A DNA stretch of 64,000 nt from an uncultured Dehalococcoidia bacterium (GTDB lineage: Bacteria; Chloroflexota; Dehalococcoidia; SM23-28-2; RBG-16-64-32), in NCBI GenBank assembly GCA_964649215.1, contig CAZYOV010000002.1:2288-66287 (forward strand). The letters are read 5' to 3'. Position 1 is the first letter of the stretch; every line of letters starts with the position of its first letter. The notes beneath the pieces are model-generated. The model was not told where the DNA came from, searched no databases, and was given only the letters and a program-made list of their open reading frames with translations. Made by a program: the position numbers and the translations under genes. Positions 13,218-29,517 of the stretch are shown piece by piece.

Positions 13218-13276
13218 TATTCAGTGCTCCTAGGTGGCCTTGGCTGAGGGGCGCTCCCGACACATGAGGGGCTGGA

Positions 13277-14387: not shown

Positions 14388-14464
14388 GGCGCATTCGTCT
14401 AGTGGCCCAGGACACCGCCCTCTCAAGGCGGAGATCACGGGTTCGAATCCCGTATGCGCCACCA
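14388..14464 (+). tRNA. tRNA-Glu (anticodon CTC)
   Basis: Acceptor GGCGCAT/ATGCGCC. Anticodon stem CCGCC/GGCGG with loop CTCTCAA. T-arm ACGGG-TTCGAAT-CCCGT. CCA end. Very similar overall to canonical bacterial tRNA-Glu. Confidence 0.8.
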
Positions 14465-14481
14465 CATTTTCAATAGGGAAA

Positions 14482-14506
14482 CGCCCCCCGGAGGGGGCGT
14501 TTGTCG
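14482..14506 (+). terminator. rho-independent terminator hairpin after tRNA-Glu
   Basis: cgccccccggagggggcg followed by tttgtcgtcc. Confidence 0.55.
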
Positions 14507-14523
14507 TCCATTTGTCGTCCAAA
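14501..14523 (+). repeat. integrase arm-type tandem repeat ttgtcgtccatttgtcgtccaaa (attL side)
   Basis: 22 of 23 identical to 29349-29371; a related copy at 9787-9797. Confidence 0.55.
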
Positions 14524-14524
14524 C

Positions 14525-15670
14525 TCACGAGCCCGTCGCCGCCAGAACGCCGTCCAGCGCCGACGCCGCCTCCCGCTGCATGTCCGGCAGGACGTGGGAG
14601 TAGGTGTCTAGGGTGATACTCACCGTGGCGTGGCCCAACCGCTCGCTGACTATTTTCGGGTGGACGCCCGCCTGCAACATTAGGGTCGCGGCGGTGTGCC
14701 GCAGGTCATGCACCCTCAGCGGCCCCACGTCAGCCGCCTTGACGACGCCGTAGAACACGCGGCGAACAGTTGAGTCGTAGACGGGCCTCCCCAGCGCGTC
14801 GGCGAACACAAGACCGTTCTCCTCATAACCTGGCCCCACCTGCATACGCTGTTCCAGCTGCTCCCGGCGATGCTCCCTGAGAGCGGCCACCGTGTCGGGC
14901 GAGAGAGCGACGGGCCGCCGCGAGCGCTGCGTCTTCGGCTGGCTGAACACGATCCCCTGCCCCCTAGCGAACCGGGCCGTCCGCACGATCCTCAGCGTCC
15001 CCCCGTCTAGGTCGACATCCGACCACCGCAAGGCCAGCAGCTCGCCCGACCGCGCTCCGGTCTGTAATGCGAGGTAGAAAAAGGTGTAGTGCGGCGTGTC
15101 CGAAGCCGCCTCCAAGAACCGCTGCGCTCCCTCCGGCGAGAGGACGCGCATCTCCCTCCGCTGCGCCCTTGGGGCTGACACGGCGTCGGCAGGGTTTGCA
15201 GCCAGCAGTTGCCACTTCACCGCCCAGGACAGAGCCTCCCGCAAGATCGCGTGGTGCTCTTTGACCGTCTTGGCGCTTAGGGATTCGCCCCGCCCGTCGC
15301 GGCGTTGAAAGGACGAGTAAGCCGCCTGTATGTGGGCGGGCCGCAGGTCGCGCAGGCGAACCCGCCCCAGCGCCGGTGCCAGGTGGTGGCGGACGATGCC
15401 CTGATATCGTTGGAGGGTAGAGGCTGCGACCTGCTCGGTGGCATAATCCCGAAGCCAACGCTCCAAGAAGTCGCCGACCGTGATCTTATTGGGGGCGATG
15501 TCGATGCCGGTGTCCCGCTGGTGCAGCGCTTCGGAGAGGACGCGCTCGGCTTCCTTTTTCGTCCCCCTCACGGTAAGAAAGCGGCGCAGGCGTCGCCCCT
15601 GAGCGTCGCGCCCCAGGTCTATGGTGAGCCCCCAGCCATCTTTACCCCGTCTTCGGATGCTTCCGGCCAT
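14525..15670 (-). CDS. phage-type tyrosine integrase with N-terminal arm-binding domain
   Basis: 381 aa. HDLRHTAAT...LGHATVSITLDTYSH catalytic box. First gene next to the tRNA-Glu 3' end. Confidence 0.85.
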   Translation of the reverse strand: MAGSIRRRGKDGWGLTIDLGRDAQGRRLRRFLTVRGTKKEAERVLSEALHQRDTGIDIAPNKITVGDFLERWLRDYATEQVAASTLQRYQGIVRHHLAPALGRVRLRDLRPAHIQAAYSSFQRRDGRGESLSAKTVKEHHAILREALSWAVKWQLLAANPADAVSAPRAQRREMRVLSPEGAQRFLEAASDTPHYTFFYLALQTGARSGELLALRWSDVDLDGGTLRIVRTARFARGQGIVFSQPKTQRSRRPVALSPDTVAALREHRREQLEQRMQVGPGYEENGLVFADALGRPVYDSTVRRVFYGVVKAADVGPLRVHDLRHTAATLMLQAGVHPKIVSERLGHATVSITLDTYSHVLPDMQREAASALDGVLAATGS

Positions 15671-15822
15671 CGCCCTGCTCCTTTCGTCGCCTGCGAAACG
15701 CCTTTGCCTTACAAGCTGGACTGCAATACTTCTGAGAGTACGGTTGCAGAGGTTCGTACCTCTTGCCGCACACAGGACACTTAACTCTCATGCCGTAAGC
15801 GTAACGGCAGGCGTTACGATTG

Positions 15823-16053
15823 TCAAGCCTTTTCTTTGTTTAGCAGCGCCGGGGCGTCATCCCTGCCGCCCTCTGACGCACTGCACTGCTCTTCGATCCA
15901 CTGGTGCAACCGATGCCGGGGGAGGCGTATGATTCGGCCCAACCTGACATGCGGCAGCTCGCCGCGACGGATCAGTTCATACACGTGGTTAGGGTGGACG
16001 CGCAGCAGCTCGGCGGCTTCAGCGACGGTTAGCAAGGGGGCGCTATTGTCCAT
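15823..16053 (-). CDS. excisionase-family / AlpA-like HTH DNA-binding protein
   Basis: LLTVAEAAELLRVHPNHVYELIRRGELPHVRLGRIIRL; 76 aa, located just downstream of int. Confidence 0.6.
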   Translation of the reverse strand: MDNSAPLLTVAEAAELLRVHPNHVYELIRRGELPHVRLGRIIRLPRHRLHQWIEEQCSASEGGRDDAPALLNKEKA

Positions 16054-16502
16054 TTCCCTCCAGCCTTGGCTGATGGGCGGCGGGGAGGATGGGGCTCTCT
16101 TGCAGCTTGAGGTCGCCTACGGTGTCGCCTTCGCCGTCTTCGCCAAGCTCTCCCTTGACGATCTCGCAGATGCCCTCGCAGAGATGGAGAAGCTGTAGCT
16201 CGGCGCGGCTGAGATTGCGGGGCAAGTAGGGTGCCGCTCCGTGAAGGTTAAGGATACGGACAGCGGCCACGCGGATGTTTCTCAAGTCGTGCTGTCCGAG
16301 CAAGGGAAATCTCGCTTGTGCTACCCTAAACGTAGCCGTCGATTGCACGGCGTCCTCCAATATCTAGGCCCGCTCTCTGATTCGCGTCGGGGGCGGGTCT
16401 GGTGCTTTTCGTGAGCCCTCATAGCCGCCGAAGAGGGGAGGAACCACATGGATATGGCCCAGGGAAAGGAGAACCTGGAACCCCTTCGGCGACTGTGGCG
16501 GA

Positions 16503-18524
16503 TCACGAAGTCTCCCATGATCGGTCTAGCCTATGTTCGTCGCAGAATGGCTTGCCGTTAGGGGCGTAGTAGGTGGCCTCAGCCCCGCAGGTGAGGCAGG
16601 AATCGGGGCCGTCGTCAGGGCTCTCCATAGGCGGGGCTGACTCTTGGTGTTCCGTATCTGAGCCGTCTAAGGTGGGGTCGGTATTCTCTCCCCGCCTTAG
16701 GGCAGGGAGTTCCCACTTCCACTGTCCATCGGCCCCAAATCCAGACTTCACCGACCGCACGCCGAGCGCGTCCTTTGCCCCGCGAAGCGTTGCCTCTTTG
16801 ACCCCCGCCGCTGTCGCCGCCTTCCGTATTTCGGTCGGTGACACGGGGCCGCTAGAGAGCAAGTCTGTCAGAATCTCTTTGGCTTCGACTAGCGCGGTTC
16901 GCCCCTCGCCATCAGCCGGGGCCGCTAGTAGCTGGTGCGCCGTCAGATCGGACTTGCCCGCCCAGGTGAACCCCTGGCCGTCACTCCAGCGGTAAGTCAG
17001 CGTCTCAGCCGGTGCCGCCAGGTTGTTCTTTACAACGGCGAAATGGCGCAGCGTCGAATCGTCAGCGTCCTCGCCCACCAGCAAGACGCTACGGGGAGCT
17101 GCTGAGAAATCTATAGAGGCGAGAATCCGCTGGAAGGCGTTGCCCGCCAGCTTCTTGTTCAGGTGAATAATGCCCAGGACACTCACCTTAGTCTCTCCGG
17201 CCAGCCTTTGCAGGGGGGCCAGGACGCCGCGCACTTGGGCGGATACGTGGGTGTCCGTACCGCCGGTGAACGCTAGAACGGGGTCGATGATGATGAGCCG
17301 CGTCTCTGGGGTGAGGGCCTGTTCTAGCAACGGTAGGTGATCATGGAGATTAAAGGCTACCTCCCCCTCTGCCGTCCAGATCATCGTCAAGGCCGTAATC
17401 CGATTCACGTCGGCTCCGAGCGTGTCCAAGCGGGGACGAACAGTATCGTCTAGGTCGTCTTCGGCGGTGAGAAGTAGAACGTCCCCCTGCGGAGCGATCC
17501 CGCCGTCCGGCCAGGGGGAGCCGCGAGAAGTCCGAGCGGCGATGTCCAGGGACAGCATCGACTTCATTAACCCAGGGTCCCCGGCGATGATGGAGATTTT
17601 ACCCAGGGGAATACGCCCAGGCCAAAGCCACTGAACCTGACGGGGGGTTACGTCGCTCAGGCGCACCAGTACAGGGGCCTTCGGCGGGGCGTCCTCATTT
17701 TCGTGAACGCCGAACTGCGAGTCTGGAATATGAATGTTCCCGCCGGCGGGACGTTCTCTCTTGGGCTTGCTGGCAGGGTAGCGGGCGACACTGGCGGCGA
17801 TAGCCAGTACATCGCGGTTGGATAACGGGGGGTCGCAGCGGCCCGTGTTGGCGACCAGCAGGGCAGCAGCTATCTCAGCCTCCCCGAAGCCTCTGCGTCT
17901 CATCGTCCCCGCGAGGCTGGCGAGGGTACTGTTGCGCTCGCCGCTGGGGATGATCTCGCTAACCTCAGGGGCACGCTGCCCGTTCTGCATCAGCCTCTTG
18001 AACACGTCGGGCAGGGGGGCAGGCTTTAGATCACCAGGGGCGCACCCCACCTCCCATTCGTACCGACGCCCTGAGGCGTGCACGGAGGGCGGCGCTACGA
18101 TGTAGCCGCCCTTTGAGCGAACGTCTACGCCGGGCGCGATGCCCGCGCCGTTCCCGTAATCCTCATCGACGTGGTAGATAAGGTGACAGCCGCCGCCGCC
18201 GGTCAACGCGGTCACGGTATCGGGCAAGTCTCCCAGGTTGGCTACTGATTCGTCGCCGCCTGATCGGGGGTCAATGTCGATGGCGAGAAGGCCGTCGCCC
18301 ATGACTAACCCGATATTGGCCTGGGGCTGTTCGCCCCACCATTTCGTAATCGCCGCCACGTCAACCGTCGCGTCGCTCAGGCCATGCTCTGTCCTGGGAT
18401 GTTTGGCGGGGGAGCTACAGTCCCCTCGCTGACAGGAGCACTTGCCGTCAACGGCCCACTGTAGGGGGAAGACGGGCCGCCCCTGGGCCGCGTAGGAAAG
18501 GGCGGCGTCCAGCAGGGCGCTCAT
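16503..18524 (-). CDS. bifunctional primase-polymerase (Prim-Pol, PriCT) fused to RepA-like AAA_25 helicase ATPase
   Basis: Prim-Pol N-terminal domain (LLAIDIDPRSGG, GGGCHLIYHVD, SKGGYIVAPPSVH). ATPase segment KISIIAGDPGLMKS. The likely start is M at 18524, coupled by an ATGA overlap to the upstream small ORF. Confidence 0.75.
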   Translation of the reverse strand: MSALLDAALSYAAQGRPVFPLQWAVDGKCSCQRGDCSSPAKHPRTEHGLSDATVDVAAITKWWGEQPQANIGLVMGDGLLAIDIDPRSGGDESVANLGDLPDTVTALTGGGGCHLIYHVDEDYGNGAGIAPGVDVRSKGGYIVAPPSVHASGRRYEWEVGCAPGDLKPAPLPDVFKRLMQNGQRAPEVSEIIPSGERNSTLASLAGTMRRRGFGEAEIAAALLVANTGRCDPPLSNRDVLAIAASVARYPASKPKRERPAGGNIHIPDSQFGVHENEDAPPKAPVLVRLSDVTPRQVQWLWPGRIPLGKISIIAGDPGLMKSMLSLDIAARTSRGSPWPDGGIAPQGDVLLLTAEDDLDDTVRPRLDTLGADVNRITALTMIWTAEGEVAFNLHDHLPLLEQALTPETRLIIIDPVLAFTGGTDTHVSAQVRGVLAPLQRLAGETKVSVLGIIHLNKKLAGNAFQRILASIDFSAAPRSVLLVGEDADDSTLRHFAVVKNNLAAPAETLTYRWSDGQGFTWAGKSDLTAHQLLAAPADGEGRTALVEAKEILTDLLSSGPVSPTEIRKAATAAGVKEATLRGAKDALGVRSVKSGFGADGQWKWELPALRRGENTDPTLDGSDTEHQESAPPMESPDDGPDSCLTCGAEATYYAPNGKPFCDEHRLDRSWETS

Positions 18525-18739
18525 TGCATCAACCCAATTTCGAGCCGGGGGCACTCGGCTTCACGAAGCGCGGCTAGAAAATGATCTACGGCTTCGGGGA
18601 GCGCACGGCGGGCATCATCATCGCCGTAGACGGCCATCTCCGCGAGGCAGTCCAGCCAGGACGTGGCCTGTGTGGGCGTGCAGCAGGTCGGGGTGTGGCT
18701 AGGCCACCGAAAAGGTTGTGTGCTATGCTTGGAGTACAT
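18521..18739 (-). CDS. small hypothetical protein, translationally coupled to the primase gene
   Basis: 72-aa ORF whose stop overlaps the ATG of the prim-pol gene (ATGA). Confidence 0.35.
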   Translation of the reverse strand: MYSKHSTQPFRWPSHTPTCCTPTQATSWLDCLAEMAVYGDDDARRALPEAVDHFLAALREAECPRLEIGLMQ

Positions 18740-18796
18740 CGCGTTTCCTTTCGTCGGGCTACGCAGGCAAGCCGCCTTTCGGGGCGGCTTTGCTGT

Positions 18797-18979
18797 TTAC
18801 ACGGCTACTGATTCCCGTTCGTTCAGAATGCGCTCAACCTCGGATTCGGCGACGCGGTAGTGGCCGTTCGGCAACTTCTTCGCGTCGAGCTTGCCGTCAC
18901 GAATCCAATTCCACAGCGACCACCGAGTGAGACCTAGCTGCTGCTCAACCTCGATCAAGGGCAGCATCCGTTCGGGCAT
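18797..18979 (-). CDS. AlpA/excisionase-family HTH regulator
   Basis: 60 aa; LTRWSLWNWIRDGKLDAKKLPNGHYRV. Confidence 0.5.
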   Translation of the reverse strand: MPERMLPLIEVEQQLGLTRWSLWNWIRDGKLDAKKLPNGHYRVAESEVERILNERESVAV

Positions 18980-19091
18980 GGCCTTCTCCCTTCACACGAT
19001 CCATAACCTGAGTATCACGCGAGCAAGGGGAGTCTGAGAAGGAAGGGTTTTCCGAGTGGGGGTTGCCGCCCTTTAGATAGGGCGGCGGGGT

Positions 19092-19742
19092 CTAGTTCCT
19101 AGAGGGCGGCAACATTCGGGGCGGACTCTTTGCCGCCCCCACCAGGCCCCAGGCGCGAAGTTTATCGAGCCTGTATCGGAACGTCCTGTCAGCCATCCCA
19201 ACAAGGTCGGCGGCGGCATCGGCGCTTAACTGCCCACCACCTCCCTGACGCAAGTAGTGGACAGTGAGCGTGTCCAGGCTCTCATCCCAGTTCAGGAGAG
19301 AAAGGCGCGGCCTAAGCATCTGGGCTGCAAAGGCGACGTGAAGGGCGGCTTCCGCCTTCTGTAGCATTTCCCGCTCTGGGTCAGGAGTAGCTTCGAGAAG
19401 CGCAACGACTTCTGGCGTTGGCTCTACGGGAAACGGCTGCCCATCTTTGGCGAACGACTGACGGAGAACCTCACGGACAGCGGCTGAACTATCCTTGAAT
19501 TGATAGCTCGCGCCCTCTGGCGTTCCGGTCACATGAATGACCAACTCTTGCCGCCGCACGCAGGCAGGATCCCAATCATGGCGGTACGTCTCTCCTAGCA
19601 AGACAGACTGAAGGTGCTCCTCCATGCGGGGAGAGAAGTCCGAGTCTTCTGGAGCCGAGTACACGCGAAGCCCTTCCCTCAACTCAAGGAGCGCCTGCGC
19701 TCGATCCCTAACCAGGAGGCTCACGGGAATCCCGTGTATCAT
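19092..19742 (-). CDS. hypothetical regulator with C-terminal HTH
   Basis: 216 aa; C-terminal ..ADLVGMADRTFRYRLDKLRAWGLV; motif-1 copy D lies about 240 bp upstream in the correct orientation. Confidence 0.45.
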   Translation of the reverse strand: MIHGIPVSLLVRDRAQALLELREGLRVYSAPEDSDFSPRMEEHLQSVLLGETYRHDWDPACVRRQELVIHVTGTPEGASYQFKDSSAAVREVLRQSFAKDGQPFPVEPTPEVVALLEATPDPEREMLQKAEAALHVAFAAQMLRPRLSLLNWDESLDTLTVHYLRQGGGGQLSADAAADLVGMADRTFRYRLDKLRAWGLVGAAKSPPRMLPPSRN

Positions 19743-19985
19743 GCGTCCATGATATCGTCAATGGCGATGGATCGCAAGTAACTATACCAAGCGCCTACTC
19801 AGCTTAGCCCCTAGAAGCCAGTCAGAAGCCACCAGATGACCGAGAGACGCAGGCACCGCCCCAGCTCGTTGTATGGCTTGGCCGAACGCCACTCGCGGCC
19901 CACGGTACAATAGGAGACGCGGACGGCGAGCCTTCTGAGTTCCCAAGTCCTCCTAGCGATGGGGCTTGGCCCCTCAGACGCCCTG

Positions 19986-20026
19986 AGACGCGATTGTGCG
20001 CCTGGGGTGGGCGGCTGTCAACGGGG
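19986..20026 (-). repeat. motif-1 copy D (reverse orientation): TTGACA = rc of 20016-20021, CACAAT = rc of 19993-19998
   Basis: cgattgtgcgcctggggtgggcggctgtcaacgg. Confidence 0.6.
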
Positions 20027-20178
20027 CGTGTCGGGCTTAGCGTGTCACCCTCCAGGGGGGCTTGACAAACGATGGGGAAACGCTATCCTGTAATCCGTCA
20101 ACGAAATATAAAGCGACGGGCGGCGGTGGATGTCGTGGCCGAGATTCGGTCAAGAGGTAAAGGGAAGGGGGAGACGAG

Positions 20179-20598
20179 ATGATACGTCCGATCTTTGTTG
20201 TGGTGGGCCTAGCTGTCATTGCTGCATCTTTGATGGCCACCAACCATATTTCTCTCGTGCTTGATATCGACATCAAGCCGGGCAGCGACCCGAACTCGAT
20301 CAGGCCGCTCAATAATGGCCTCCTCCCGGTGGCCATTCTGGGCAGCGCCACTTTCGATGTCAACGACGTAGACGTGAGCACTCTGGCGTTCGGCCCCGAT
20401 GGCGCGGTGCCCGTTCACGACGAAGGGGGCCACTTGGAGGACGTGAACTCTGACGGCTTTACGGATCTGGTCTCTCACTATCGCATCCCGGAGACCGGCA
20501 TCGCGTTGGGCGATACAGAGGCCTGTGTCACCGGCGAGCTGCTCGACGCTACGCCCTTCGAAGCCTGCGACGACATCCGCACCGTGCCCGTGCCCTAG
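20179..20598 (+). CDS. small secreted protein with dockerin/EF-hand-like Ca-binding loop
   Basis: Signal peptide [34 protein letters not shown] resembles a dockerin repeat. GGAGA SD. Confidence 0.5.
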
Positions 20599-20630
20599 GC
20601 GAAGCTGGACTCCGGCGGCGACTCGCTGGT

Positions 20631-20672
20631 CGCCGAGATTGTGCGCCTGGGCCGGGCGGCTGTCGAAGGAGA
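20631..20672 (-). repeat. motif-1 copy E (reverse; -35 variant TCGACA)
   Basis: gagattgtgcgcctgggccgggcggctgtcgaagga, 33 bp after the stop of the 20179 gene. Confidence 0.5.
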
Positions 20673-20935
20673 CGCGAGGGTTCGGCTGGCAGCGGGGGCC
20701 CGCTCTCCACCGTGAGGCTGAGCTGGCGGGCCAAGTGTGGCTGGCCCTGGCCGCCGTGCTGGCGGGCGCGGCGCTCCTCTTCAAGCTGACCTAGGCGGAT
20801 CATGGTACGAAGGATCTCTCTCGTCTTCGGGACGGTGACCGGGCTGCTGCCCTGGCTGTTGGGCCTGGCAAGCTTTGCTCGTAGAGGCTACTATGAATCC
20901 ATGGAGGTCTTCGGGATGGGCACGGAGGGAGCGGC

Positions 20936-21313
20936 GTGACTTCGGCCAGGCTGCGTCGTATCGTGCTCGACCGGCCTATGCTAGCGGTCGGACTGGTCGC
21001 TGCTCTGACGGGGGCAGCGCTGGCCAGCGGGATCATGGCTTACGGCGCGATAGCGGACGGTACCAAGTACACAACGCTGTCCTGGGCGCTCATCGCCCCG
21101 GTCTGGGGTCTCCTGGCCCTGCTGTGGCTCCTCGTCCGTCGCTGGCCGCTGGCGGCGGCGGCTTCGATGGGCTGGCTGGCGATCTTCGCGGGTATCTACT
21201 ATGGCGATGTGTACGGCCAGTTTCCCGCCGCGCTCCTCTTCTTGCTGGGGACGGCGATAGTGTTCGTTCCCGACCGGGCGAAGGACGGCGGTACCCGCAC
21301 GATGCGAACGTAA
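20936..21313 (+). CDS. small integral membrane protein (about 4 TM helices)
   Basis: 125 aa; alternating hydrophobic stretches; GTG start with GGAGGGA upstream. Confidence 0.45.
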   Translation: MTSARLRRIVLDRPMLAVGLVAALTGAALASGIMAYGAIADGTKYTTLSWALIAPVWGLLALLWLLVRRWPLAAAASMGWLAIFAGIYYGDVYGQFPAALLFLLGTAIVFVPDRAKDGGTRTMRT

Positions 21314-21517
21314 CCGGCAAGCTACCTGTGGGGGCGTTGTCGGGCCGGAAGCCCTCGGCAGTGTGGTGGACGCCGCCCGGGAAGCGCCACCGCCTGTTGT
21401 TTTCAACACCAGCTCATTTGTGTGATCCGTAGGGAACGCGGATAGCGTCCCTGATAACCGCCTTGGGGGGGGGCTTCTGAGGTCACCCCTGGGCCACAAG
21501 GGCAGCGACCCAACTGC

Positions 21518-21558
21518 CGCCGCGATTGTGCGCCTGGGCTGGGCGGGTGTCAACGGGG
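21518..21558 (-). repeat. motif-1 copy F (reverse): tgtcaa 21548-21553, attgtg 21525-21530
   Basis: Immediately 3' of the ZR gene at 21562. Confidence 0.6.
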
Positions 21559-21561
21559 CCG

Positions 21562-21828
21562 CTAATCCCTCTCCGATTCGACGTGCTCCTGCATCGCGTT
21601 CGCGCCTGGCGAGTCGAAGTGCCGTCCAACGGTGTGCCCAGCGTACCACCACTCACGTGTAGACTTCAGTCTGCGCCCTTCGGGTCTGGCCTTGTCCAGT
21701 AGTCTATTGCAGCGTGGACAGATAGGCACTATCTCCCGCCGCCAGCGGTCGTTTGGCGCGTCCCGGTTGCGGGCAGTGACGGCCCACTGGCTGGGTGTGG
21801 GGGAACCGCAGAAGTGGCATGCGTGCAC
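21562..21828 (-). CDS. small zinc-ribbon protein (ZR family, copy 3)
   Basis: MHACHFCGSPTPSQWAVTARNRDAPNDRWRREIVPICPRCNRLLDKARPEGRRLKSTREWWYAGH; near-identical to the protein at 8031-8304. Confidence 0.6.
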   Translation of the reverse strand: MHACHFCGSPTPSQWAVTARNRDAPNDRWRREIVPICPRCNRLLDKARPEGRRLKSTREWWYAGHTVGRHFDSPGANAMQEHVESERD

Positions 21829-22084
21829 GGGGCTCAGGGTAACGAGCAGCGCGGTTCAAGTCCGATAAGGTTGTGTCGTGGTGATGGGGAAGAGGCACCA
21901 CGTACCCCCCGCGTCAGTTGCGGAACGCTGCACCATAACCTGGTGGTGGTGCCTCCTCCAGCAGTAAAACACCGACTGACGATGGGATGTTACAGCAGTC
22001 AAGCGACGCGAAGAGCGGACAGGAGTCGCTACCTGCATTGGGGGGCCAAACCATGGGAGGATTCTCATGGTGGAGCGACTTCCA

Positions 22085-22132
22085 CTGTCCGCCACCGCGA
22101 TTGTGCGCCTGGGCGGGGCGGGTGTCAACGGG
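22085..22132 (-). repeat. motif-1 copy G (reverse): tgtcaa 22123-22128, attgtg 22100-22105
   Basis: Upstream of the ZR copy 3 leader. Confidence 0.6.
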
Positions 22133-22235
22133 GGCTAGGCCGCTTCCCGCCACCTCAGCTCGTATAGCCGGACAGGGTCCTCGAAGCCACGCAACTCGGT
22201 CTCGCCCAGCCACGCATCGACTGTGGACAGCTCGC

Positions 22236-23156
22236 CTAGACCAGCTCCCTCATCTGCTCCATTCGCGAGAGGAAGCCCTCGACCGACTCACCATCCGGCG
22301 AGAAGGATGGATCGAAGAAAATCTCGGCGGCTCCAAGCTCCCTCGTGGCCTCGATGTCGGCCTTGATCTCATCCACCGAGCCGTAGAACGGATAGGGTCG
22401 CTGTTCGCCCACGGGTTCGTCGGTAATGTTGAAGTTCGCCCTGACGATCATCTCGATCTCATCCGGATTGCGGCCGGCCTCCTTTGCCATGCTCCGCAAC
22501 CCCTCGTACATCTGCTTCATGCCGTCGATGGGTATGGCGACGGGTGTCCAGCCGTTGGCCATCGTCGCAGCCCGCTTGAGCGCTCCGGGACTGAACGCCG
22601 CCAGGTATATGGGCGGGTGGGGCTTCTGCACCGGCTTCAGCTGGATGTTCGACTTCGGCAGGTGGTAGAACTCGCCGTGGAACTCCACAGGGTCCGTAGT
22701 CCAGATCGCCTTCAGGACGGTGATGAACTCGTCTGCCAGGCGGCCCAGCCCCTTCATCGGCCTGCCGACGGCGTCGAACTCGTCCTTGCACCAGCCCAGG
22801 CCCAGACCCACGCGCAATCGACCGCCCGAGAGGACGTCCAGCGTCGTAAGTCGGCGCGCCAGCAGTACCGGATTGTAGTAGGGCATATTCAGCACGCTGG
22901 TGCCCAATGCGACGCGGCTCGTGTGGGCTGCGGCGTATGTTAACGTCTCCAGGGGATCAAGAACCGTCTTGAACGCCTCCGGATAGGACCCATCCGGGCT
23001 GACTATGTAGGGAACTTGCGGGTTTACCGGGAACAGGAAACGCTCCCACACCCATAAGCTATCGTACCCCAGCTCCTCTGCCCGTCGAGCCACCGCGGCG
23101 ATAGATTCCGGACCTGCCGCTGCCCCGCTAATGGGCAAACCATAACCTATTCGCAT
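22236..23156 (-). CDS. LLM-class flavin/F420-dependent oxidoreductase (luciferase-like monooxygenase)
   Basis: 306 aa; typical LLM N-terminus MRIGYGLP..LGYDSLWVWERF and TIM-barrel signature; cargo gene inside the element. Confidence 0.75.
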   Translation of the reverse strand: MRIGYGLPISGAAAGPESIAAVARRAEELGYDSLWVWERFLFPVNPQVPYIVSPDGSYPEAFKTVLDPLETLTYAAAHTSRVALGTSVLNMPYYNPVLLARRLTTLDVLSGGRLRVGLGLGWCKDEFDAVGRPMKGLGRLADEFITVLKAIWTTDPVEFHGEFYHLPKSNIQLKPVQKPHPPIYLAAFSPGALKRAATMANGWTPVAIPIDGMKQMYEGLRSMAKEAGRNPDEIEMIVRANFNITDEPVGEQRPYPFYGSVDEIKADIEATRELGAAEIFFDPSFSPDGESVEGFLSRMEQMRELV

Positions 23157-23322
23157 CTCTTGCTGCTCCTTCTAGTACACGACTGACACATGGCGGGGAT
23201 ATTGTACGCCTCTGGACTATCCCTGTCTCGGTGTCACTGGCCGTCAGCAGGAAGCCTAGGCCGTATCCTCCAAAAGTACCTGAGCCGCCGCCCCTAGACC
23301 CTCCCCCTGATACCATCTAAGG

Positions 23323-23529: not shown

Positions 23530-23673
23530 CAGACGTTGGCCGCCGACTGCGTGCACGCTGCCCCTGCTACAGCCGTCCGGCCTGGCACCGGTAGGGCCAT
23601 GGGTGTTGGTTAAGGGTCTTTCATCAAGATGTGCCTTGATTAAGTAATCGGCCATATGCTTAAATAAGAGCTG

Positions 23674-24921
23674 GTGAGTCACATGGAAAATGCTCGTGCT
23701 GGCATATACATCAAGCAGATAAGGGGCTACAGAGCCTTTATCCCTAGCCCCTTGCCACCAGACCCACCTCTGGTTATGGACAACGAGATGCTGGTCGCAC
23801 TGTCATCAGCTGATCGTGCCTTAGGAAGGCTAGATGGTGCGACAGAAGTCCTCCCAAACCCTGATCTCTTCATCGCGATGTACGTAAGGCGCGAATCAGT
23901 TCTTAGCTCGCAGATCGAGGGCACTCAAGCCTCCTTGACCGATGTACTCGAATACGAAGCTGACGCTGCCAGGAAGGGCCTCCCCGTCGATGTCACTGAA
24001 GTAGTGAACCACATTGATGCCCTGAGCTATGGCCTCCGGCGGTTGGACGAACTGCCTGTCTCCTTGCGACTCATTAGAGAGATTCATGAGCACCTCATGG
24101 CCGACGTTCGGGGTGGACAAATGTCTCCAGGCGAGTTTCGTACCACCCAAAATTGGATTGGCCCGCCGGGTTCCACGCTAACGAATGCTTTATTTATTCC
24201 GCCACCACCTTATGAGATGATGGGGGCCCTGGATGATCTTGAAAAATTCCTTCACGCTGCGGATCATCTACCAGTGCTCGTCAAGGCAGGGCTTGTTCAT
24301 GCTCAATTTGAAACGATACACCCTTTCTTGGACGGCAATGGCCGAATCGGACGGCTACTAATAACCTTTCTGCTATGCCAACAAGGGGTTCTGCGACGGC
24401 CCTTGCTCTATCTGAGTCACTATCTCAAGCTGCATCGGAGTGAGTACTACAGCCGACTTATGGCCGTTAGAGAGACCGGGGAGTGGGAAGGCTGGCTCAA
24501 GTTCTTCCTAGCAGGAGTCGCGAGCGTTGCCAACCAAGCCACGGACACCGGCAGGGAAATACTCCACCTGCGCGAAACGCATCGGCAGTTGCTTTCCAGT
24601 CGCATCCAAACTCTCAACGGGCCGCGGCTCTTGGACTATCTCTTTGAGCGACCGATCGTTAACGTATCCCTTGTCGCCAAGGCCCTGACGGTTAGTACTC
24701 CCACTGCCAACAGTCTCGTGAACCAATTCGAAGAGATCGGCCTGTTAACCGAGACCAGTGGCAGGCGGCGAAATCGCCTGTTCTCCTATCAGCCGTATCT
24801 GCAACTGTTCGAAGATCAGGCGCTACAGAAAGAGTCCGAGGAAGAGCCAAGTTCAGACCCTGACGCCGTTAGCGTCGAGGCCTATCCGTCTGAGGCACCG
24901 ACAGAGTTCGACAACGTGTGA
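23674..24921 (+). CDS. Fic family protein (class II, with intrinsic inhibitory helix) and C-terminal wHTH
   Basis: Fic motif HPFLDGNGRIGRLL. N-terminal inhibitory motif SSQIEGT (S/TxxxEG). An alternative ATG at 23683. Local GC is lower. Confidence 0.85.
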   Translation: MSHMENARAGIYIKQIRGYRAFIPSPLPPDPPLVMDNEMLVALSSADRALGRLDGATEVLPNPDLFIAMYVRRESVLSSQIEGTQASLTDVLEYEADAARKGLPVDVTEVVNHIDALSYGLRRLDELPVSLRLIREIHEHLMADVRGGQMSPGEFRTTQNWIGPPGSTLTNALFIPPPPYEMMGALDDLEKFLHAADHLPVLVKAGLVHAQFETIHPFLDGNGRIGRLLITFLLCQQGVLRRPLLYLSHYLKLHRSEYYSRLMAVRETGEWEGWLKFFLAGVASVANQATDTGREILHLRETHRQLLSSRIQTLNGPRLLDYLFERPIVNVSLVAKALTVSTPTANSLVNQFEEIGLLTETSGRRRNRLFSYQPYLQLFEDQALQKESEEEPSSDPDAVSVEAYPSEAPTEFDNV

Positions 24922-25044
24922 GTCGCTGACAAGAGCATCAGTTCCCAGCGCCCTGGGCGCCGAGTCAGCGCCTCGTTGGCAGCCACGTAAATGCGAGCAG
25001 TATCATGAGTTCGACAGAGGAAAGGGGAAAGGAGACTCTGATTC

Positions 25045-25509
25045 ATGGCGGACGCATACGATACGTACGTAGCTGTAGCAAGTGGCAAGCTTGATGCTGT
25101 GATGGATTCGGTTAGGTCGCTTGACGCGAAGTCCTTTCAATCCCTAGCAACGGGCACGATTGTCCTTGGGGTGGGTGCCAGCCTCGGCGGTTTTGAGGGT
25201 GCAGAGGCACCCTCATTAGTGTTTCTCAGTCTAGCCGCCATAGCGTTTGCTTGCCTCGCCGTTTTCACCTTTCGGGCGGCTAAAGTAAAAATGTGCAGCA
25301 ACCGCCCCGATCTGGCCACTCTCGATCAACATCTACACGACACAGCGGTTTCGTTCGATGAGCTTCGCCTCTGGACGGCTCGCGAATATGCGCTCTCTGC
25401 AAAAGAAAACGATCCCTCTCTGATCAGCAAAGGCAAGTACACCACGGCTTCGATAGTCGCTCTATCAATAGAGGTGCTCCTTCTATTGATGGGCGTAGTC
25501 CTAGCCTGA
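25045..25509 (+). CDS. hypothetical 3-TM membrane protein downstream of fic
   Basis: AAGGAG SD; three hydrophobic helices; 154 aa. Confidence 0.45.
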   Translation: MADAYDTYVAVASGKLDAVMDSVRSLDAKSFQSLATGTIVLGVGASLGGFEGAEAPSLVFLSLAAIAFACLAVFTFRAAKVKMCSNRPDLATLDQHLHDTAVSFDELRLWTAREYALSAKENDPSLISKGKYTTASIVALSIEVLLLLMGVVLA

Positions 25510-25877
25510 CACCCCGCTATTCCTTGCGTTCAGGAGGACCCTTCTGGGGTGGAGCCGGCGGGGGATGAGAGGGAGGAGTGGGAAAGTCCTTCGCGCCGGG
25601 AGTAGGGGCTTCCCTTGCAGGCAGATCGGGTCGCGGGCCTGGAGGAGGGGGATTTGGAGGAGTGGGCCTGGGCTCCTCCGCCCAAACTGAAACAGTCCTA
25701 GTCATGAGCGCCCCCAGTCATTTTATCTAACGCCGATAGGATACTCTCTTGGAGCCGCTTTGGAAACTGCCCCCTGTCCTGTAATGGACTTTTGGAGTAC
25801 TGGCCACTACGTCACCGCGCCCAGCACCATCCCCACCTCCAACACCACCAAGACGTGCACGCCGCATGGCCACAAAG

Positions 25878-26100
25878 AACGGGCGCAGCGGCCACCCGTG
25901 CTTGCGAGGACAACCGCCGCGCCATCTCTCAGCCCGCTCTACGCAATATCCCAGAGCCACACTATCGGGCCGAGAGGCATGATTATACCACCAGACGCCA
26001 TAGGAACAGGCGCAGCGGAGGAGGTTTCCAATCATCACCGCTGCGCCATCCCTCAGCCTCACACGGCGGGACGCCGAGAGGAGAGGGCATGATTATACCA
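25878..26100 (+). repeat. tandem pair of a hairpin-containing unit about 90 bp long (..gggcgcagcgg..ccgctgcgccatccctcagcc..gccgagaggcatgattataccac)
   Basis: Two tandem units here; a single unit at 8351-8425. Confidence 0.55.
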
Positions 26101-26197
26101 CCTTGAGTCATCCGGCGGGACGGTACTTGACAGAAGGTCTATAATGTGTCGCACGGGCGGTGGGATGCCCTACGGTTAGTAACTAGGAGGTATCCGA

Positions 26198-26437
26198 ATG
26201 AAGCGAAAGCTACTCACGATTATGTTTCTCCTAGCGTTCTCGATTTCGACATTTGCGGCGCTCGGAGTGAGCGGAGCGTCGGCGGGGCCAAGCCTCACGG
26301 TGGCGCTCCTGTCGCCTGACAGCACAATGGTAGTCGATGGACCAGATGCAGCGACCGGTGGTGCCGTCACAGCGTTCACCAACGTCACCAATGCCGGAGT
26401 GGAGATAGAGAACATTGACGTCGCGTTCGTCTGCTGA
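26198..26437 (+). CDS. small secreted peptide/protein (79 aa)
   Basis: Strong SD TAGGAGG 9 nt upstream. Signal peptide MKRKLLTIMFLLAFSISTFAALG. Gly/Ala/Thr-rich mature part ending in Cys. Confidence 0.45.
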   Translation: MKRKLLTIMFLLAFSISTFAALGVSGASAGPSLTVALLSPDSTMVVDGPDAATGGAVTAFTNVTNAGVEIENIDVAFVC

Positions 26438-26918
26438 CGTCTAACAACAACTGTTAACGGTCACTGACGAGTTGATTGCCAGGGCGTCCCGCCGCTGGGT
26501 AAGCCAGAATCGGCCCCTCTCACCGGGGGGCCTTTTCTGTTCTGGGGGACGGGCCTTTGGGGAATCTGCTGTGACGCGAAACGAACTTCCTAGACTGTAT
26601 ACAGAGAGGCCATCATGGAACCCGTGATCCCCTAGGCCAGGTAGGGGGAGGGGGCCAGGTAGCTACAGACTCGCCCCTGAGCTACAAATACCCCGCACCC
26701 ATGGGCATGGGCAGGGCGGGAAGAGAAACCCCATCGTGGGCATGGGGCAGGCTGGCGTGTCGGCAGTTGGTCGGCAACGGGCGGGCCCTCCTATCTGGGT
26801 CTAGATAGGCCGCATGCGGGATGACTGCTCGCGGGTGCCGTTTTGCCCCGTGCCGGTGACGGGAGGGGGAACCCCCTTTTAGGGCTGCGTGTGTGGGCGG
26901 GCTAACCCTTCCCCGTGC

Positions 26919-27458
26919 CTAGGCCCCTGTGTCCCCTTCCTCATCTAAGGGGGACGGGAAGGTATCGGGGATAATCACCTTGCCCTCAATGATGGCGTCT
27001 CTTTCAGGGACAGTGAGACCCGACAGGCGGTCGATAGCCTCAGCAAGCTCTCGCGTGGCCTCGGAGCCCCTAGAGCGTTGGGCGAGGTCGGCGATCTTCA
27101 CTACCTTATCGGAGGCGATGCCGTAGGTGATGGCTAAGTCCCTGCCTGTGATGGTACCCGCCTCTACCTCATCGTCCAGCTTGTCTGCCGACTGCAAGGC
27201 GAGATCGAGGCTACGAGTGTAGAGGCGTTCGCTTCTTTCCCGTTGCAGGGCGTTAAAGCGTTCGGGCTCTATGGTTTTGGCCCAGCGCCAGATCAGGTTA
27301 CGGGAGGGGTAGCGTTCGGGGTACCTCTTAGCCATCTCACGGGCGGCTTCGGCGCAGTTGCCGGTGGCCAGGACTATCGCTACCGCTTCCGCCTTGAAGT
27401 CCGCTGGGTACTCCCACTCGTCCCAGGGGATGACTTCGCGCTTGCCGTTGTCACTCAT
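26919..27458 (-). CDS. small HTH protein, terminase small-subunit-like (paralog of 8989-9498)
   Basis: KAEAVAIVLATGNCAEAAREMAKRYPERYPSRNLIWRW; 179 aa. Confidence 0.5.
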   Translation of the reverse strand: MSDNGKREVIPWDEWEYPADFKAEAVAIVLATGNCAEAAREMAKRYPERYPSRNLIWRWAKTIEPERFNALQRERSERLYTRSLDLALQSADKLDDEVEAGTITGRDLAITYGIASDKVVKIADLAQRSRGSEATRELAEAIDRLSGLTVPERDAIIEGKVIIPDTFPSPLDEEGDTGA

Positions 27459-27751
27459 GCCTTTACCTTCTCTCGGTAGATCGTCGTTGCCTCCCCCTTG
27501 GCGTCCACCACCAGGATGTGCATGTCATCGGCTATAACTACCCCTGGCGGGAAGTGGTGGGTAACGGGGGCGTACGTCATTCTCGCCCCGTCCTGCTCCC
27601 AGCGACCCAGCGTCATCGCCCCGGTCGCTGAGAGGGTGACGATATGTAGCGGCGGCTCAAAGCCTTGCTCCACCAAGTTGACTAGGTGAACGTGCAACTG
27701 CGCTGCCTGCTGCACGGCGGCGTCCGCTTCCGCTGCCTCTCCGAACTTCAT
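27455..27751 (-). CDS. hypothetical protein, translationally coupled upstream of the terS-like gene
   Basis: 98 aa; stop overlaps the start of the 26919-27458 gene. Confidence 0.4.
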   Translation of the reverse strand: MKFGEAAEADAAVQQAAQLHVHLVNLVEQGFEPPLHIVTLSATGAMTLGRWEQDGARMTYAPVTHHFPPGVVIADDMHILVVDAKGEATTIYREKVKA

Positions 27752-28018
27752 GGCCTCAGCCCATCACGAAATGGGCGTTATCGCCTACCTACTCGGAAGC
27801 CCGCAAAGCCGCCGCCTAGCGCCGCTAACGTGGCTACTGAGACGCTGAACAGCGTCCCGTTCACACCCTGGCTCAATGCGTAGAGGTCAAGTACCGTAAT
27901 GAGGAACGCAACCCACGCGAGGAAGATGAGCGCTGATACCCTCTTCACTTTAGGTGTATACTAGCGAAACGGTTCATCCGGTTAGAATCCAGCCAGCCAG
28001 TGCGAGGGAGCAACGACA

Positions 28019-28285
28019 TTGATACTATCCGATGACGCCTCGGCCATTAAGCTACTTCCGCCCTTGCTCAAAAAGTTTGCACTAGAGATAGAGGGCGGAA
28101 CTGGAATGAAGATGGGAAAGGTGCGAATCAGCCCCACAGCCGTAGCGTTCTTAATGGGGGGCCAAGGCACAGCGGCGCGCATTTCCGGAGCGCGGCAGCC
28201 GATAGCGAGCTTCATCTACGTGCTTCTCTCGGAAGACCCAGAACTCGCCAAAGACGTTGCAGGACGCGCAACCAAGCTGGCCTAA
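28019..28285 (+). CDS. hypothetical protein
   Basis: 88-aa ORF; no motif. Confidence 0.3.
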   Translation: MILSDDASAIKLLPPLLKKFALEIEGGTGMKMGKVRISPTAVAFLMGGQGTAARISGARQPIASFIYVLLSEDPELAKDVAGRATKLA

Positions 28286-28405
28286 CAGGGACACGAGCTA
28301 AGGGCCGACAATCCCACCACTCCCAATCATCCCACTTGATCTGATCAGGCGTGTCCATTACCTGCTCCGACGGGGATAATCACGTGCTCCAACGCCCTAC
28401 TCATC

Positions 28406-28789
28406 CTACTTGTGGCCCCTCCGTAGGTGCAGGTCGCGCCCATTCTCAGAATCAAAGAAGCGGTTGCAGTCTCCGTCCGTGCAATCAAAGCCACGCTGAA
28501 CGGGCGGCGGCGGCACTCGCGGGACATTGCCCTCACGTCGCATAGCGGCAAGGGCTAGGTCTTCCTGCTCTTGCCGTACCCTCTCCCGTCCCGCTGTCGC
28601 TACGCGGCCCTTGAATGTCTCCAAACACTCCAAGTTTCTATCAGCGGATTTACCGTCAATTGCGGTTATGGGGGTGTGGATTACCCTCCCGATGTTGTTC
28701 TCATCGGGAAGCGATGTCCAGCTGTCGCCCCGCTCAAGGCCACCACAGACGAAACAGCCCTTCTTCTTCTCCTCCGTAGCGATTGTCAA
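28406..28789 (-). CDS. hypothetical zinc-binding protein (CxxC and C..C..H..H motifs)
   Basis: 127 aa; CFVCGG and FDCTDGDCNRFFDSENGRDLHLRRGH. Confidence 0.4.
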   Translation of the reverse strand: MTIATEEKKKGCFVCGGLERGDSWTSLPDENNIGRVIHTPITAIDGKSADRNLECLETFKGRVATAGRERVRQEQEDLALAAMRREGNVPRVPPPPVQRGFDCTDGDCNRFFDSENGRDLHLRRGHK

Positions 28790-29181
28790 AATATCCCCAA
28801 TTCCTGCGCTTTGGAGGTTGAAATCTCGCCCTTGGCGTAGGCTGCGCGGGCCTTGTTTAGATCGACCTTCGGCTTCGGCGGCTTCTGACCTGACGGCGCG
28901 ACTGGCACGGCCCCGCCCTTAATGAACGTCTTGAACGTCTTGTACACGTCTGCGGCATCTTCGCTTTCGGGAAACTCGCTCATCTGGTCGAGTCGGCCTA
29001 GTAGCTCCCTGCCTGCGGCGCTGTCGGCCCCCTCTTGAACCGCCTCCATTACCTGTGTCTTGGCCAGGGCGATGCGCCCCTGGTAGTTAGCAGCCGCTAC
29101 GAGGTTCCCCTCTTTCATCTGAGAGTCGAGCGCTGCCTGTGACGGAGTGGCGTCGCTCTGCGTAAAGTCGTCGTCTGCCAT
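28786..29181 (-). CDS. hypothetical protein (overlapping stop/start with 28406 gene)
   Basis: 131 aa; acidic N-terminus, Lys/Pro-rich C-terminus. Confidence 0.4.
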   Translation of the reverse strand: MADDDFTQSDATPSQAALDSQMKEGNLVAAANYQGRIALAKTQVMEAVQEGADSAAGRELLGRLDQMSEFPESEDAADVYKTFKTFIKGGAVPVAPSGQKPPKPKVDLNKARAAYAKGEISTSKAQELGIF

Positions 29182-29348
29182 CGCGTCCTCCTTGTGTCAG
29201 TGATACGGGGCCTGACGCTTCTACAGCGAAAGGGCCTGACAACCGCTCAACTGCGGAGGTGTCAGGCCCCGTTCACCAGTATTGTAGCACGGGGGTAGAT
29301 GGGGTTAGCGGTTGGTGCAAACCTCGCGGCCAACCCCCCTTGGCCCCC

Positions 29349-29371
29349 CGGCGAATCTTGTCGCCCATTTG
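29349..29371 (+). repeat. arm-type repeat ttgtcgcccatttgtcgtccaaa (attR side)
   Basis: Direct repeat of 14501-14523. Preceded by ccccccggcg at 29331, which echoes the terminator half at 14485. Confidence 0.55.
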
Positions 29372-29494
29372 TCGTCCAAAAGCAAGTGAGAGGGAGTAAC
29401 GGGGAGTGACAGGGGGTGAAAAAGGGAGCCTTTCCAGACACGGAAAGTGGCTCAGGGTGAAAAGAATTGACTGGTTGTGACGGGTAGGCGGGAA

Positions 29495-29517
29495 TTCGAA
29501 TCCCGTATGCGCCACCA
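29495..29517 (+). repeat. displaced 3' fragment of tRNA-Glu (att core, ttcgaatcccgtatgcgccacca)
   Basis: Exact 23-nt copy of 14442-14464, followed by the hairpin at 29532-29558. Confidence 0.65.

Follow-up and report, generated by a model that had tools for sequence, protein, structure and literature searches.

A 15-kb integrative element in tRNA-Glu of an uncultured Dehalococcoidia bacterium, probably self-replicating after excision and with no recognised genes for self-transfer

Islands that reside in tRNA genes form a structural category in the Islander work on tDNA islands (PMC4383910), in which the island regenerates an intact tRNA gene, a displaced 3' fragment of that gene lies at the far end and the integrase gene (int) stands beside the tRNA. 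The tycheposons of Prochlorococcus (Hackl et al., bioRxiv 10.1101/2020.12.28.424599) couple a tRNA-targeting tyrosine integrase with an excisionase, a primase/helicase and either cargo genes or terS, the gene of the small terminase subunit (TerS). Also close are the phage-inducible chromosomal islands (PICIs) and the marine VEIMEs, which are integrative mobile elements encapsidated in virions (PMC9618062); for the former, SatelliteFinder (PMC10085698) names the combination of int, alpA and pri-rep 'Type C PICI', which its authors treat as ambiguous. Here we describe an element inserted in tRNA-Glu(CTC) of an uncultured Dehalococcoidia bacterium (Chloroflexota), within a 64-kb stretch of DNA that we call the window and to which the coordinates of the element refer. 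We hold with fairly high confidence that it is a 15,053-bp site-specific integrative element that probably replicates itself once excised and does not transfer itself. Little has been described of the mobile elements of Chloroflexota, and for this one we give limits to the base pair, a mapped layout of attP, a control in the form of empty sites, and several siblings.

The two ends of the element are marked by a duplication of the 3' end of its target gene, as the following features show.

14309-14382, plus strand: tRNA-Gln(CTG) (ARAGORN; Rfam RF00005), chromosomal, just upstream of the target tRNA
14388-14464, plus strand: tRNA-Glu(CTC), the integration target (ARAGORN; Rfam 67.5 bits), intact after insertion, with CCA encoded
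14442-14464, plus strand: attL core, the 23-nt 3' end of tRNA-Glu, exact repeat
29495-29517, plus strand: attR core, displaced 23-nt copy of the tRNA-Glu 3' end, exact repeat, followed by chromosomal flank collinear with the sister loci L003-L005

The 23-mer TTCGAATCCCGTATGCGCCACCA occurs exactly twice in the window, at the two core positions, and the claim of an earlier sequence-only reading of this DNA, that the last 23 nt of tRNA-Glu recur at 29495-29517 and bracket the element, is confirmed by this exact repeat. Identity of the cores is confined to the 23 nt, with no extension on either side, and none of 100 shuffled sequences contained a match, even when three mismatches were permitted. 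The GC content of the element is 0.611, versus 0.635 in the flank, with a lower-GC patch (0.55-0.57) around the Fic gene described below.

Related loci were fetched from species-representative genomes with the HpcH-type aldolase gene (29575-30339, minus strand) that lies directly to the right of the element. Four of them, L002-L005, are Chloroflexota metagenome-assembled genomes (MAGs) in which the tRNA-Gln/tRNA-Glu(CTC) pair is present and the 23-mer occurs once; the Gln-Glu pair was also found in L040 and L041, two loci that carry related elements. In L003-L005, positions 14307-14464/14466 of the window align at ~98-99% identity and the sequence from 29495 on aligns at 92.5-94.8% identity over up to 10.9 kb; the two alignments abut and share only the core, so that the tRNA is joined directly to the right flank. 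Because tRNA and right flank are contiguous in these three genomes and overlap only in the core, the window carries a clean 15,053-bp insertion relative to them. The comparison of the locus in relatives, which the sequence-only reading had suggested, thus yields clean empty sites in L003, L004 and L005, and its view of a discrete integrative element stands: 15,053 bp long, with a duplicated 23-nt core and int beside an intact tRNA, and absent from four sister genomes. Presence and absence are polymorphic at this locus, with empty sites in L003-L005 and sibling elements in L040, L041, L043 and L044.

The fourth sister genome, L002, is also without the element and has 316 nt of unrelated AT-rich DNA between tRNA-Glu and the aldolase gene (about 316 nt at 8712-9028, absent from the window and from L003-L005). 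This segment may be the scar of another event at the same site and hints that the tRNA-Glu site is recombinationally active. We also noted a tRNA-Glu(TTC) 1.5 kb from the Gln/Glu pair in L002 and L003 that is missing from the window.

In lambda-type heterobivalent systems the core lies in the target, direct-repeat arm sites occupy both arms and xis stands beside int; in lambda itself the stretch from the P arm site to the core holds the Xis sites. The corresponding features predicted at the present locus are these.

14500-14521, plus strand: P' arm-type sites, TTTGTCGTCCA twice, at a distance of 35 nt from the core, on the side of int
29357-29378, plus strand: P arm-type sites, cTTGTCGCCCA/TTTGTCGTCCA, oriented like the P' sites and 116 nt away from the core
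14479-14502, unstranded: perfect 10-bp hairpin AAACGCCCCC/GGGGGCGTTT, abutting the P' arm sites and kept in L040
29385-29419, plus strand: 3.5 tandem 10-mers, AGTGACAGGG-like (Tandem Repeats Finder, TRF), between the P arm site and the core, kept in L043/L044
29357-29494 + core + 14465-14521: predicted attP, ~220 bp, with the junction ...GTGACGGGTAGGCGGGAA-TTCGAATCCCGTATGCGCCACCA-CATTTTCAATAGGGAAACG...
Predicted attB, with the junction ...GGAGATCACGGG-TTCGAATCCCGTATGCGCCACCA-TAGCGCGAACGTGCAAGG...

A tandem motif near both ends had already been read as integrase arm sites, and the copy at 14501-14523 is indeed present; the second copy lies at 29358-29380 and not at 29349-29371, a shift of 9 nt. 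These are the only two occurrences of the 23-mer TTGTCG(Y)CCATTTGTCGTCCAAA, with none expected by chance, and TRF resolves the repeat as tandem 11-mer units that point the same way at the two ends. What raises the arm-site reading above a guess is the comparison with L040, L041, L043 and L044. In L040 TTTGTCGTCCATTTGTCGTCCAAA is retained exactly while the spacer towards the core has changed. Loci L043 and L044, which represent the opposite end of a sibling element, match the window at ~91% identity over the arm site, the core and on into the aldolase flank and show no similarity at all to the left of the arm site, so that homology starts there. In L041 an analogous hairpin is followed, at the same position, by a different tandem pair, TTTGCCGACCG/ATTGCCGACCA; here the repeats have co-varied, the architecture being kept and the sequence altered in both copies. 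The 11-mers are exact in L040, L043 and L044 where neighbouring sequence diverges, and this conservation supports the view that they behave as integrase arm-type sites. Since such repeats are present on both arms and are distinct from the core, the site has the make-up of a heterobivalent system, as far as its sequence can tell. The hairpin at 14479-14502 is likely a bidirectional terminator between the tRNA operon and int, and the 10-mer array at 29385-29419 offers candidate sites for Xis or an accessory protein.

The backbone genes lie on the minus strand and run towards the tRNA in the order 216-aa protein, 60-aa HTH_17 protein, a 72-aa open reading frame (ORF), replicase, 105-aa protein, Xis and Int.

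14525-15670, minus strand: tyrosine integrase (Int), 381 aa (Pfam Phage_integrase 2.2e-27, Phage_int_SAM_3 1.6e-12)
15823-16053, minus strand: excisionase (Xis), 76 aa (Pfam HTH_17 1.2e-17; NCBIfam TIGR01764 62.4 bits, cut-off 28.8)
16043-16360, minus strand: conserved 105-aa protein between rep and xis (tblastn 67% identity in L028, 57% in L001; no Pfam match)
16503-18554, minus strand: replicase, a Prim-Pol + PriCT_1 + AAA_25 (RepA/DnaB-like) fusion of 683 aa (Pfam 3.2e-38, 4e-12 and 1.6e-30)
18797-18979, minus strand: second HTH_17 protein, 60 aa (Pfam HTH_17 3.4e-07)
19092-19742, minus strand: 216-aa protein, not conserved in siblings

Gene content was searched with Pfam, PHROGs, NCBIfam and PADLOC, and about 25 ORFs were tested for transfer families. 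All catalytic residues of the integrase are present (R207, H321, R324, H347 and Y357), and its closest relatives in the PDB include the integrases of Tn1549 and lambda. About 60 residues precede the SAM_3 domain without a Pfam call; several close homologues (55-70% identity, precomputed) carry the arm-binding domain PF14657. Of 8,000 candidates scored, 590 proved homologous to the replicase (673 aa long in its database copy) at E<=1e-10, and nearly all of these are metagenomic; relatives of the replicase in cultured phages and in plasmids reach no more than 24-42% identity and are uninformative on lifestyle. In L028, L031 and L041, too, an HTH_17 gene stands at the corresponding position upstream of rep; the 60-aa protein encoded there in the element is a candidate AlpA/MerR-like regulator, its regulatory role being assumed. 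A promoter-like TTGCGA-17-TATCAT (19749-19777) ends 7 nt ahead of the ATG of the 216-aa gene (19742), which suggests that this gene has a leaderless mRNA.

Two cargo genes have recognisable functions.

22236-23156, minus strand: luciferase-like monooxygenase (LLM)-class F420-dependent oxidoreductase, 306 aa (Pfam Bac_luciferase 5.7e-55; TIGR03619 238 bits, cut-off 166.9)
23674-24921, plus strand: Fic_N/Fic/HTH_13 protein of SoFic type, 415 aa (Pfam; PADLOC PDLC03963 2.7e-123)

SoFic is a published abortive-infection defence. The match to PDLC03963 is full-length, with residues 18-380 on profile positions 5-359 of 361, and against the NCBIfam SoFic equivalog the protein scores 171 bits, below the cut-off of 550; because of this score it is classed as a SoFic relative rather than an equivalog, and its role in defence is a predicted one. 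The remaining ORFs without a family had no usable match in PHROGs, Pfam or PADLOC. With integrase, excisionase-like helix-turn-helix (HTH) protein, Prim-Pol/PriCT/RepA helicase, HTH regulators, LLM oxidoreductase and Fic protein all found again with Pfam and NCBIfam, the gene content proposed from the sequence alone was borne out.

The same backbone recurs in the contexts fetched: integrase, HTH_17 excisionase, replicase and a further small HTH_17 regulator upstream of the replicase. The closest relative, L040, comes from another metagenome and lies beside tRNA-Glu(CTC); its Int is 93% and its Xis 86% identical, and it has an unrelated AAA_25 replicase. In L041, where Int is 66% identical and inserted at tRNA-Glu(CTC), a DUF3631 protein is accompanied by an Eco57I-like enzyme and an SNF2/PLD helicase; L028 and L040 have an AAA_25 protein with a different N-terminus, and L001 has a Prim-Pol/AAA_25 replicase with a GHKL-ATPase and a Top6A-Toprim pair. 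L001 and L043 share one sample and were counted as separate elements, because L043 has the arm sites of this element and Int identity in L001 is no higher than 37%. Judged by these comparisons, replicase and cargo are interchangeable among related elements. More distant Prim-Pol relatives in L031 and L032 adjoin tRNA-Glu(TTC) (L031 7763-7840 and L032 230-307), the replicase of this distant element being 40% and its integrase 25% identical, and another, L029, lies on a contig labelled as a viral operational taxonomic unit. The cargo of two related elements is itself defence-like: a HATPase_c protein and a Top6A/Spo11-Toprim protein in L001 (316-2927), and a 1343-aa Eco57I-type enzyme with a 1077-aa SNF2/PLD helicase in L041 (1-6769).

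No ORF matched capsid, portal, tail, large terminase or lysis families in Pfam, PHROGs or NCBIfam, nor did any tested ORF match FtsK/SpoIIIE, relaxase or coupling-protein families in the same databases; the AAA_25 replicase is the only P-loop protein among the tested ORFs. The absence of major capsid, portal, large terminase, tail and lysis genes agrees with the earlier view that this is not a complete prophage and leaves the label phage-plasmid-like, which the same reading had offered, without the virion genes it needs. With both ends of the element inside the window, there is no need to look for conjugation genes outside it, as the sequence-only reading had suggested doing.

By inference from lambda-type tyrosine recombination, Int would bind both the core and the 11-mers of the two arms, which stand off from the core by 35 nt on P' and by 116 nt on P in an attP of ~220 bp, and the HTH_17 excisionase would steer the reaction towards excision of a circle. 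The Prim-Pol/PriCT/AAA_25 protein would then prime and unwind this circle for episomal replication, and the second HTH_17 protein and the 216-aa protein may regulate the replication module. Any benefit to the host would come from the cargo, namely the SoFic-type Fic abortive-infection protein and the F420-dependent oxidoreductase. Movement between cells would have to rely on a helper or a passive route because no capsid, tail, large terminase, FtsK-like translocase or relaxase was found; packaging in helper-phage capsids, as in PICIs, VEIMEs and tycheposons, would be the most likely route. This packaging step is the weakest part of the proposal, and we regard it as rather doubtful. The element itself is probably active, as suggested by its intact ORFs and perfect repeats, by its absence from four sister species and by diverged siblings at the same site.

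Several results weigh against a self-replicating element that is moved by others. Neither a circular form nor an attP junction was seen, and the only other assembly of the element (Logan SRR8799000; L035 and L036), located by the exact sequences of Int and of a 131-aa protein encoded near attR, has attL and attR contigs only. The arm 23-mer has no exact match in Joint Genome Institute (JGI) metagenome contigs or IMG/VR, the replicase has no close relative among IMG/VR viral contigs, and a search for iterons or an origin near rep recognised none. The integrase itself has no Pfam arm-binding-domain match. No helper phage is known, and the many small ORFs without detectable homology could conceivably include a novel transfer function.

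The explanation that competes best makes the element a phage satellite of the PICI/VEIME type, in which infection by a helper would trigger excision and replication and a TerS-like protein of 179 aa would direct the large terminase of the helper to a packaging (pac) site in the neighbouring gene-free region, with the island ending up in helper capsids. The features concerned are as follows.

26919-27458, minus strand: 179-aa HTH + long-helix protein, conserved (AlphaFold2 pLDDT 69)
27455-27751, minus strand: 98-aa protein, conserved together with the 179-aa gene (78% identity in L043 and L044), no family match
26440-26918, unstranded: gene-free region downstream of the 179-aa gene, with patchy nucleotide matches to 8754-8843, L033, L034, L043 and L044
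25872-26100, minus strand: two tandem small-RNA-like units, each with a GTGGTATAAT extended -10 box, a 5' hairpin and a terminator hairpin

The gene set alone brings the element at least to 'Type C PICI' by SatelliteFinder, since it has int, xis, a pri-rep and two HTH_17 (PF12728) proteins that are candidates for AlpA/MerR/Stl-type regulators; its 15 kb without structural genes and its defence cargo are typical as well, and SoFic and other cargo would interfere with phage. The case for a small terminase comes from the 179-aa protein. Its family is narrow, one database yielding 19 homologues and an exhaustive profile search 51 cluster representatives, and the AlphaFold model of the protein shows an N-terminal HTH followed by long helices. 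TerS is the top match in two structure libraries: in the PDB, TerS of phages G20c and P74-26 (E ~1.6, non-significant), and in BFVD a 'Terminase small subunit' (E 0.063, TM-score 0.47/0.52), with five further TerS in the top 50. TerS PHROGs are matched by three of 39 family members at ~3e-4. Set against this, none of these TerS matches is significant and the HTH alone could drive them; matches to DUF4817, an HTH family (12 of the 39 members), and to transposase-type HTH proteins are commoner, and other members match generic DNA-binding families. The protein is possibly small-terminase-like, on weak and non-significant model matches, and it remains a lead.

The surroundings of the gene fit a terS of the satellite type. 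The gene of the large terminase, terL, never follows the 179-aa gene; at every locus that reaches far enough (the element, the island to its left described below, L033, L034 and L043) it is followed instead by ~0.5-1.0 kb, partly conserved, without a called gene or convincing ORF. The stretch 26440-26918 is a candidate cis-acting site, either pac or a replication origin (ori), and 16360-16503 is another region in which the origin may lie. Inverted repeats of CTATCTAG type were seen downstream of the 179-aa gene. The small-RNA-like units, which always lie downstream of the 179-aa gene family, could be aligned in four copies, two at 25872-26100, one at 8330-8425 (minus strand) and one in L034 (3029-3120). 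The GTGGTATAAT box is invariant; the 5' hairpin CCUCUCGGC...GGCUGAGGG has a loop with variable inserts, the terminator hairpin GGCGCAGCGG/CCGCUGCGCC is conserved, and fold z-scores range from -2.5 to -3.6. Rfam gave no match to these units; in the window it recognised only the two tRNAs at the gathering threshold, and 25400-27000 had no match at E<=1. Further points count against a satellite. No capsid-redirecting, Ppi-like or other hijack gene was recognised with Pfam, PHROGs or PADLOC, there is no relative in IMG/VR (the 179-aa protein has none among its viral contigs either), and neither a helper phage nor any sign of encapsidation came to light. A metagenome scan with the 179-aa alignment gave three short contigs without useful context, a wider alignment being too diverse to use. 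We therefore rate the satellite explanation as possible and on the whole rather unlikely. One further point in its favour, the presence of the same module in a second island with a different integrase, concerns the DNA on the other side of the tRNA pair.

13277-14221, minus strand: XerC-like integrase of the left region
10716-11921, minus strand: AAA_25 protein of the left region
8989-9498, minus strand: paralogue of the 179-aa protein, 49% identical, in the left region

The 14.3 kb to the left of tRNA-Gln show no similarity to the sister loci, with a break at 14307, 2 nt ahead of the tRNA. The left region also holds a 271-aa ORF, a 270-aa ORF, a similar gene-free region, one small-RNA-like unit and a copy of a zinc-ribbon cassette. 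From its gene content, 7700-14306 (its start may lie further left) has the look of a second island that uses a different integrase and has modules in common with the element; in 1-13200 the sequence next to tRNA-Gln has no direct repeat that would mark the boundary. Metagenome contigs L037-L039 match 8838-9682 at 82-90%. Further left, a 12/24-nt tandem repeat (7419-7552) encodes the Pro/Thr/Glu-rich tail of a 458-aa protein (6180-7556, plus strand) with weak sigma-70 region 2 and zf-HC2 anti-sigma matches.

The CI RNA is the regulatory immunity RNA of satellite P4. It is conceivable, and in our view unlikely, that the element and the left island share a portable packaging/immunity cassette made up of a TerS-like protein, a pac site and a regulatory small RNA. 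If this were true, Chloroflexota would have their first recognised phage-satellite lineages here, and a hijacking module would move between unrelated integrative backbones.

A second alternative is that the element is a once-mobile island, now fixed, whose int and rep have fallen into disuse and which is kept for its cargo. The failure to detect an excised form would fit this, as would several core-adjacent ORFs that are unique to this copy and a cargo region with signs of patchwork recombination. However, the 23-nt repeat is perfect and neither end has lost its arm sites, int, xis and rep are full-length ORFs and the catalytic residues are in place, absence from all four sister species implies a recent gain, and siblings at 86-93% identity at the same site in other genomes imply an active lineage. 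We consider a fixed remnant quite improbable.

Least probable of all, and very unlikely in our estimate, is an integrative mobilisable element like the actinomycete integrative and conjugative elements (AICEs), conjugating by its own unrecognised translocase or by a co-resident conjugative apparatus: the integration and replication half of AICEs is indeed matched by an Int located at a tRNA, by Xis, by a Rep of Prim-Pol type and by a size within 9-24 kb, and remote relatives of the AAA_25 part of Rep occur on Streptomyces plasmids, but the FtsK_SpoIIIE, relaxase, coupling-protein, Spd, Nudix and GntR/Kor families are unmatched in the tested ORFs, no oriT-like feature was identified, the siblings are likewise without transfer genes and the host is a chloroflexote, its flank being 92.5-94.8% identical to Chloroflexota MAGs. 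The label AICE-like that the element was first given fails because the defining FtsK-like Tra protein was not found. A closer description of our probably self-replicating integrative element is a tycheposon- or PICI/VEIME-like integrative replicative island.

The rest of the cargo consists of small genes and repeats.

19969-22137, unstranded: cargo block, with four copies of a TTGACA-17-CACAAT promoter repeat on the minus strand
20179-20598, plus strand: signal-anchored protein, 139 aa, in the cargo block
20936-21313, plus strand: protein with four transmembrane segments, 125 aa, in the cargo block
21562-21828, minus strand: zinc-ribbon protein, 88 aa, in the cargo block
25045-25509, plus strand: predicted membrane protein, 154 aa (ORF and sequence only; no family match)
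28406-29181, minus strand: Cys-rich zinc-finger-like 127-aa protein and 131-aa protein, both absent from L043 and L044
19969-20030, 20614-20675, 21501-21562 and 22076-22137, minus strand: promoter repeat copies
2742, 3698, 5966, 7710 and 45817, plus strand: promoter repeat copies

On the minus strand, reading from attR, the order is 131-aa protein, 127-aa protein, 98-aa protein, 179-aa protein, ~0.5 kb without genes, a 79-aa ORF with a signal peptide on the opposite strand, and the small-RNA-like units. In L043/L044 the sequence corresponding to window position 27759 abuts that corresponding to 29348.

The zinc-ribbon cassette at 21527-22132 is 79% identical at the nucleotide level to an inverted copy at 7709-8339. 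Its leader (~260 nt, e.g. 21881-22008) is ~97% conserved, above the level of the 88-aa coding part, and an indel of 39 nt, a length divisible by three, distinguishes the two copies; the leader may be a small upstream ORF or a structured leader, as this pattern suggests. The promoter repeat CCGTTGACAcccgccc..cccaggcgCACAATcgcggc (~40-60 nt, with a conserved spacer) occurs in both islands and in the core chromosome. We considered it as a recombination site or part of an integron-like cassette and rejected this, as it also occurs in the core chromosome (45817) and is properly placed upstream of genes in the left region. A similar, more diverged unit lies upstream of tRNA-Gln in L003. The TTGACA-17-CACAAT repeat is probably a strong promoter type of the host. 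Two of its copies in the element (21553 and 20666) are antisense to the only plausible ORFs. A segment of 63-90 nt at 23189-23251 and 9593-9682 and in L037, L038 and L043 is 95-97% identical between loci that are otherwise ~80% alike. It comprises a promoter, GAGACA-17-TACAAT, and then in most loci the ORF start MEPRIQYAQTKDG...; in the left island only a 17-codon stump of this ORF remains, and in the element the same promoter would now drive the LLM gene. From the aligned loci this looks like cargo exchange at a promoter junction.

In the element and its siblings, integrase, replicase and defence cargo are exchanged as modules at a single tRNA. The element is one more data point in favour of small integrative replicons with defence genes (tycheposon-, PICI- and VEIME-like) being widespread beyond Proteobacteria, Firmicutes and cyanobacteria. 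The set of integrase, attP and attB, with its 23-nt core and 11-mer arm sites, is a possible genetic tool for an uncultured phylum that is hard to manipulate.

AICEs such as pSAM2 and SLP1 are integrative and conjugative elements of actinomycetes with an FtsK/SpoIIIE-like Tra protein, Spd, Pif(Nudix) and Kor. The element resembles them in having a tyrosine integrase, accompanied by Xis, that inserts it at the 3' end of a tRNA, in its Prim-Pol-type Rep and in its similar size; it differs in having no match to FtsK/SpoIIIE-like Tra, Spd, Pif(Nudix) or Kor and in a host that is not an actinomycete. With lambda-type attP it has in common a core in the target, direct-repeat arm sites on both sides, xis beside int and short tandem repeats between the P arm site and the core, but each arm has no more than two 11-mers, and at 57 nt the P' arm is very short. 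The element has all three structural marks of the Islander tDNA islands (PMC4383910), a structural category that is silent on replication or transfer. PICIs (PMC10085698) and VEIMEs (PMC9618062) share with it int, an AlpA-like small HTH protein, pri-rep, possibly terS, defence cargo, the lack of structural genes and a similar size; in the element, however, no capsid-morphogenesis or interference gene was recognised and TerS is only putative. Classical PICIs have a divergent regulator pair, whereas here all backbone genes point in one direction, with int last. Like the tycheposons (bioRxiv 10.1101/2020.12.28.424599), some of which carry terS, the element has a tyrosine recombinase (tycheposons may have a serine recombinase instead), a partial tRNA copy at its far end and a replication module in a size of 10-20 kb, with no capsid or conjugation families found, and integration, replication and cargo are swapped as modules in both. 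It differs in belonging to Chloroflexota and not to cyanobacteria and in carrying a defence gene and an oxidoreductase in place of nutrient-uptake operons, and the likeness described here is one of gene set. No concept is changed by these comparisons; the element belongs to a known kind, tycheposon/PICI/VEIME-like, in an under-studied phylum.

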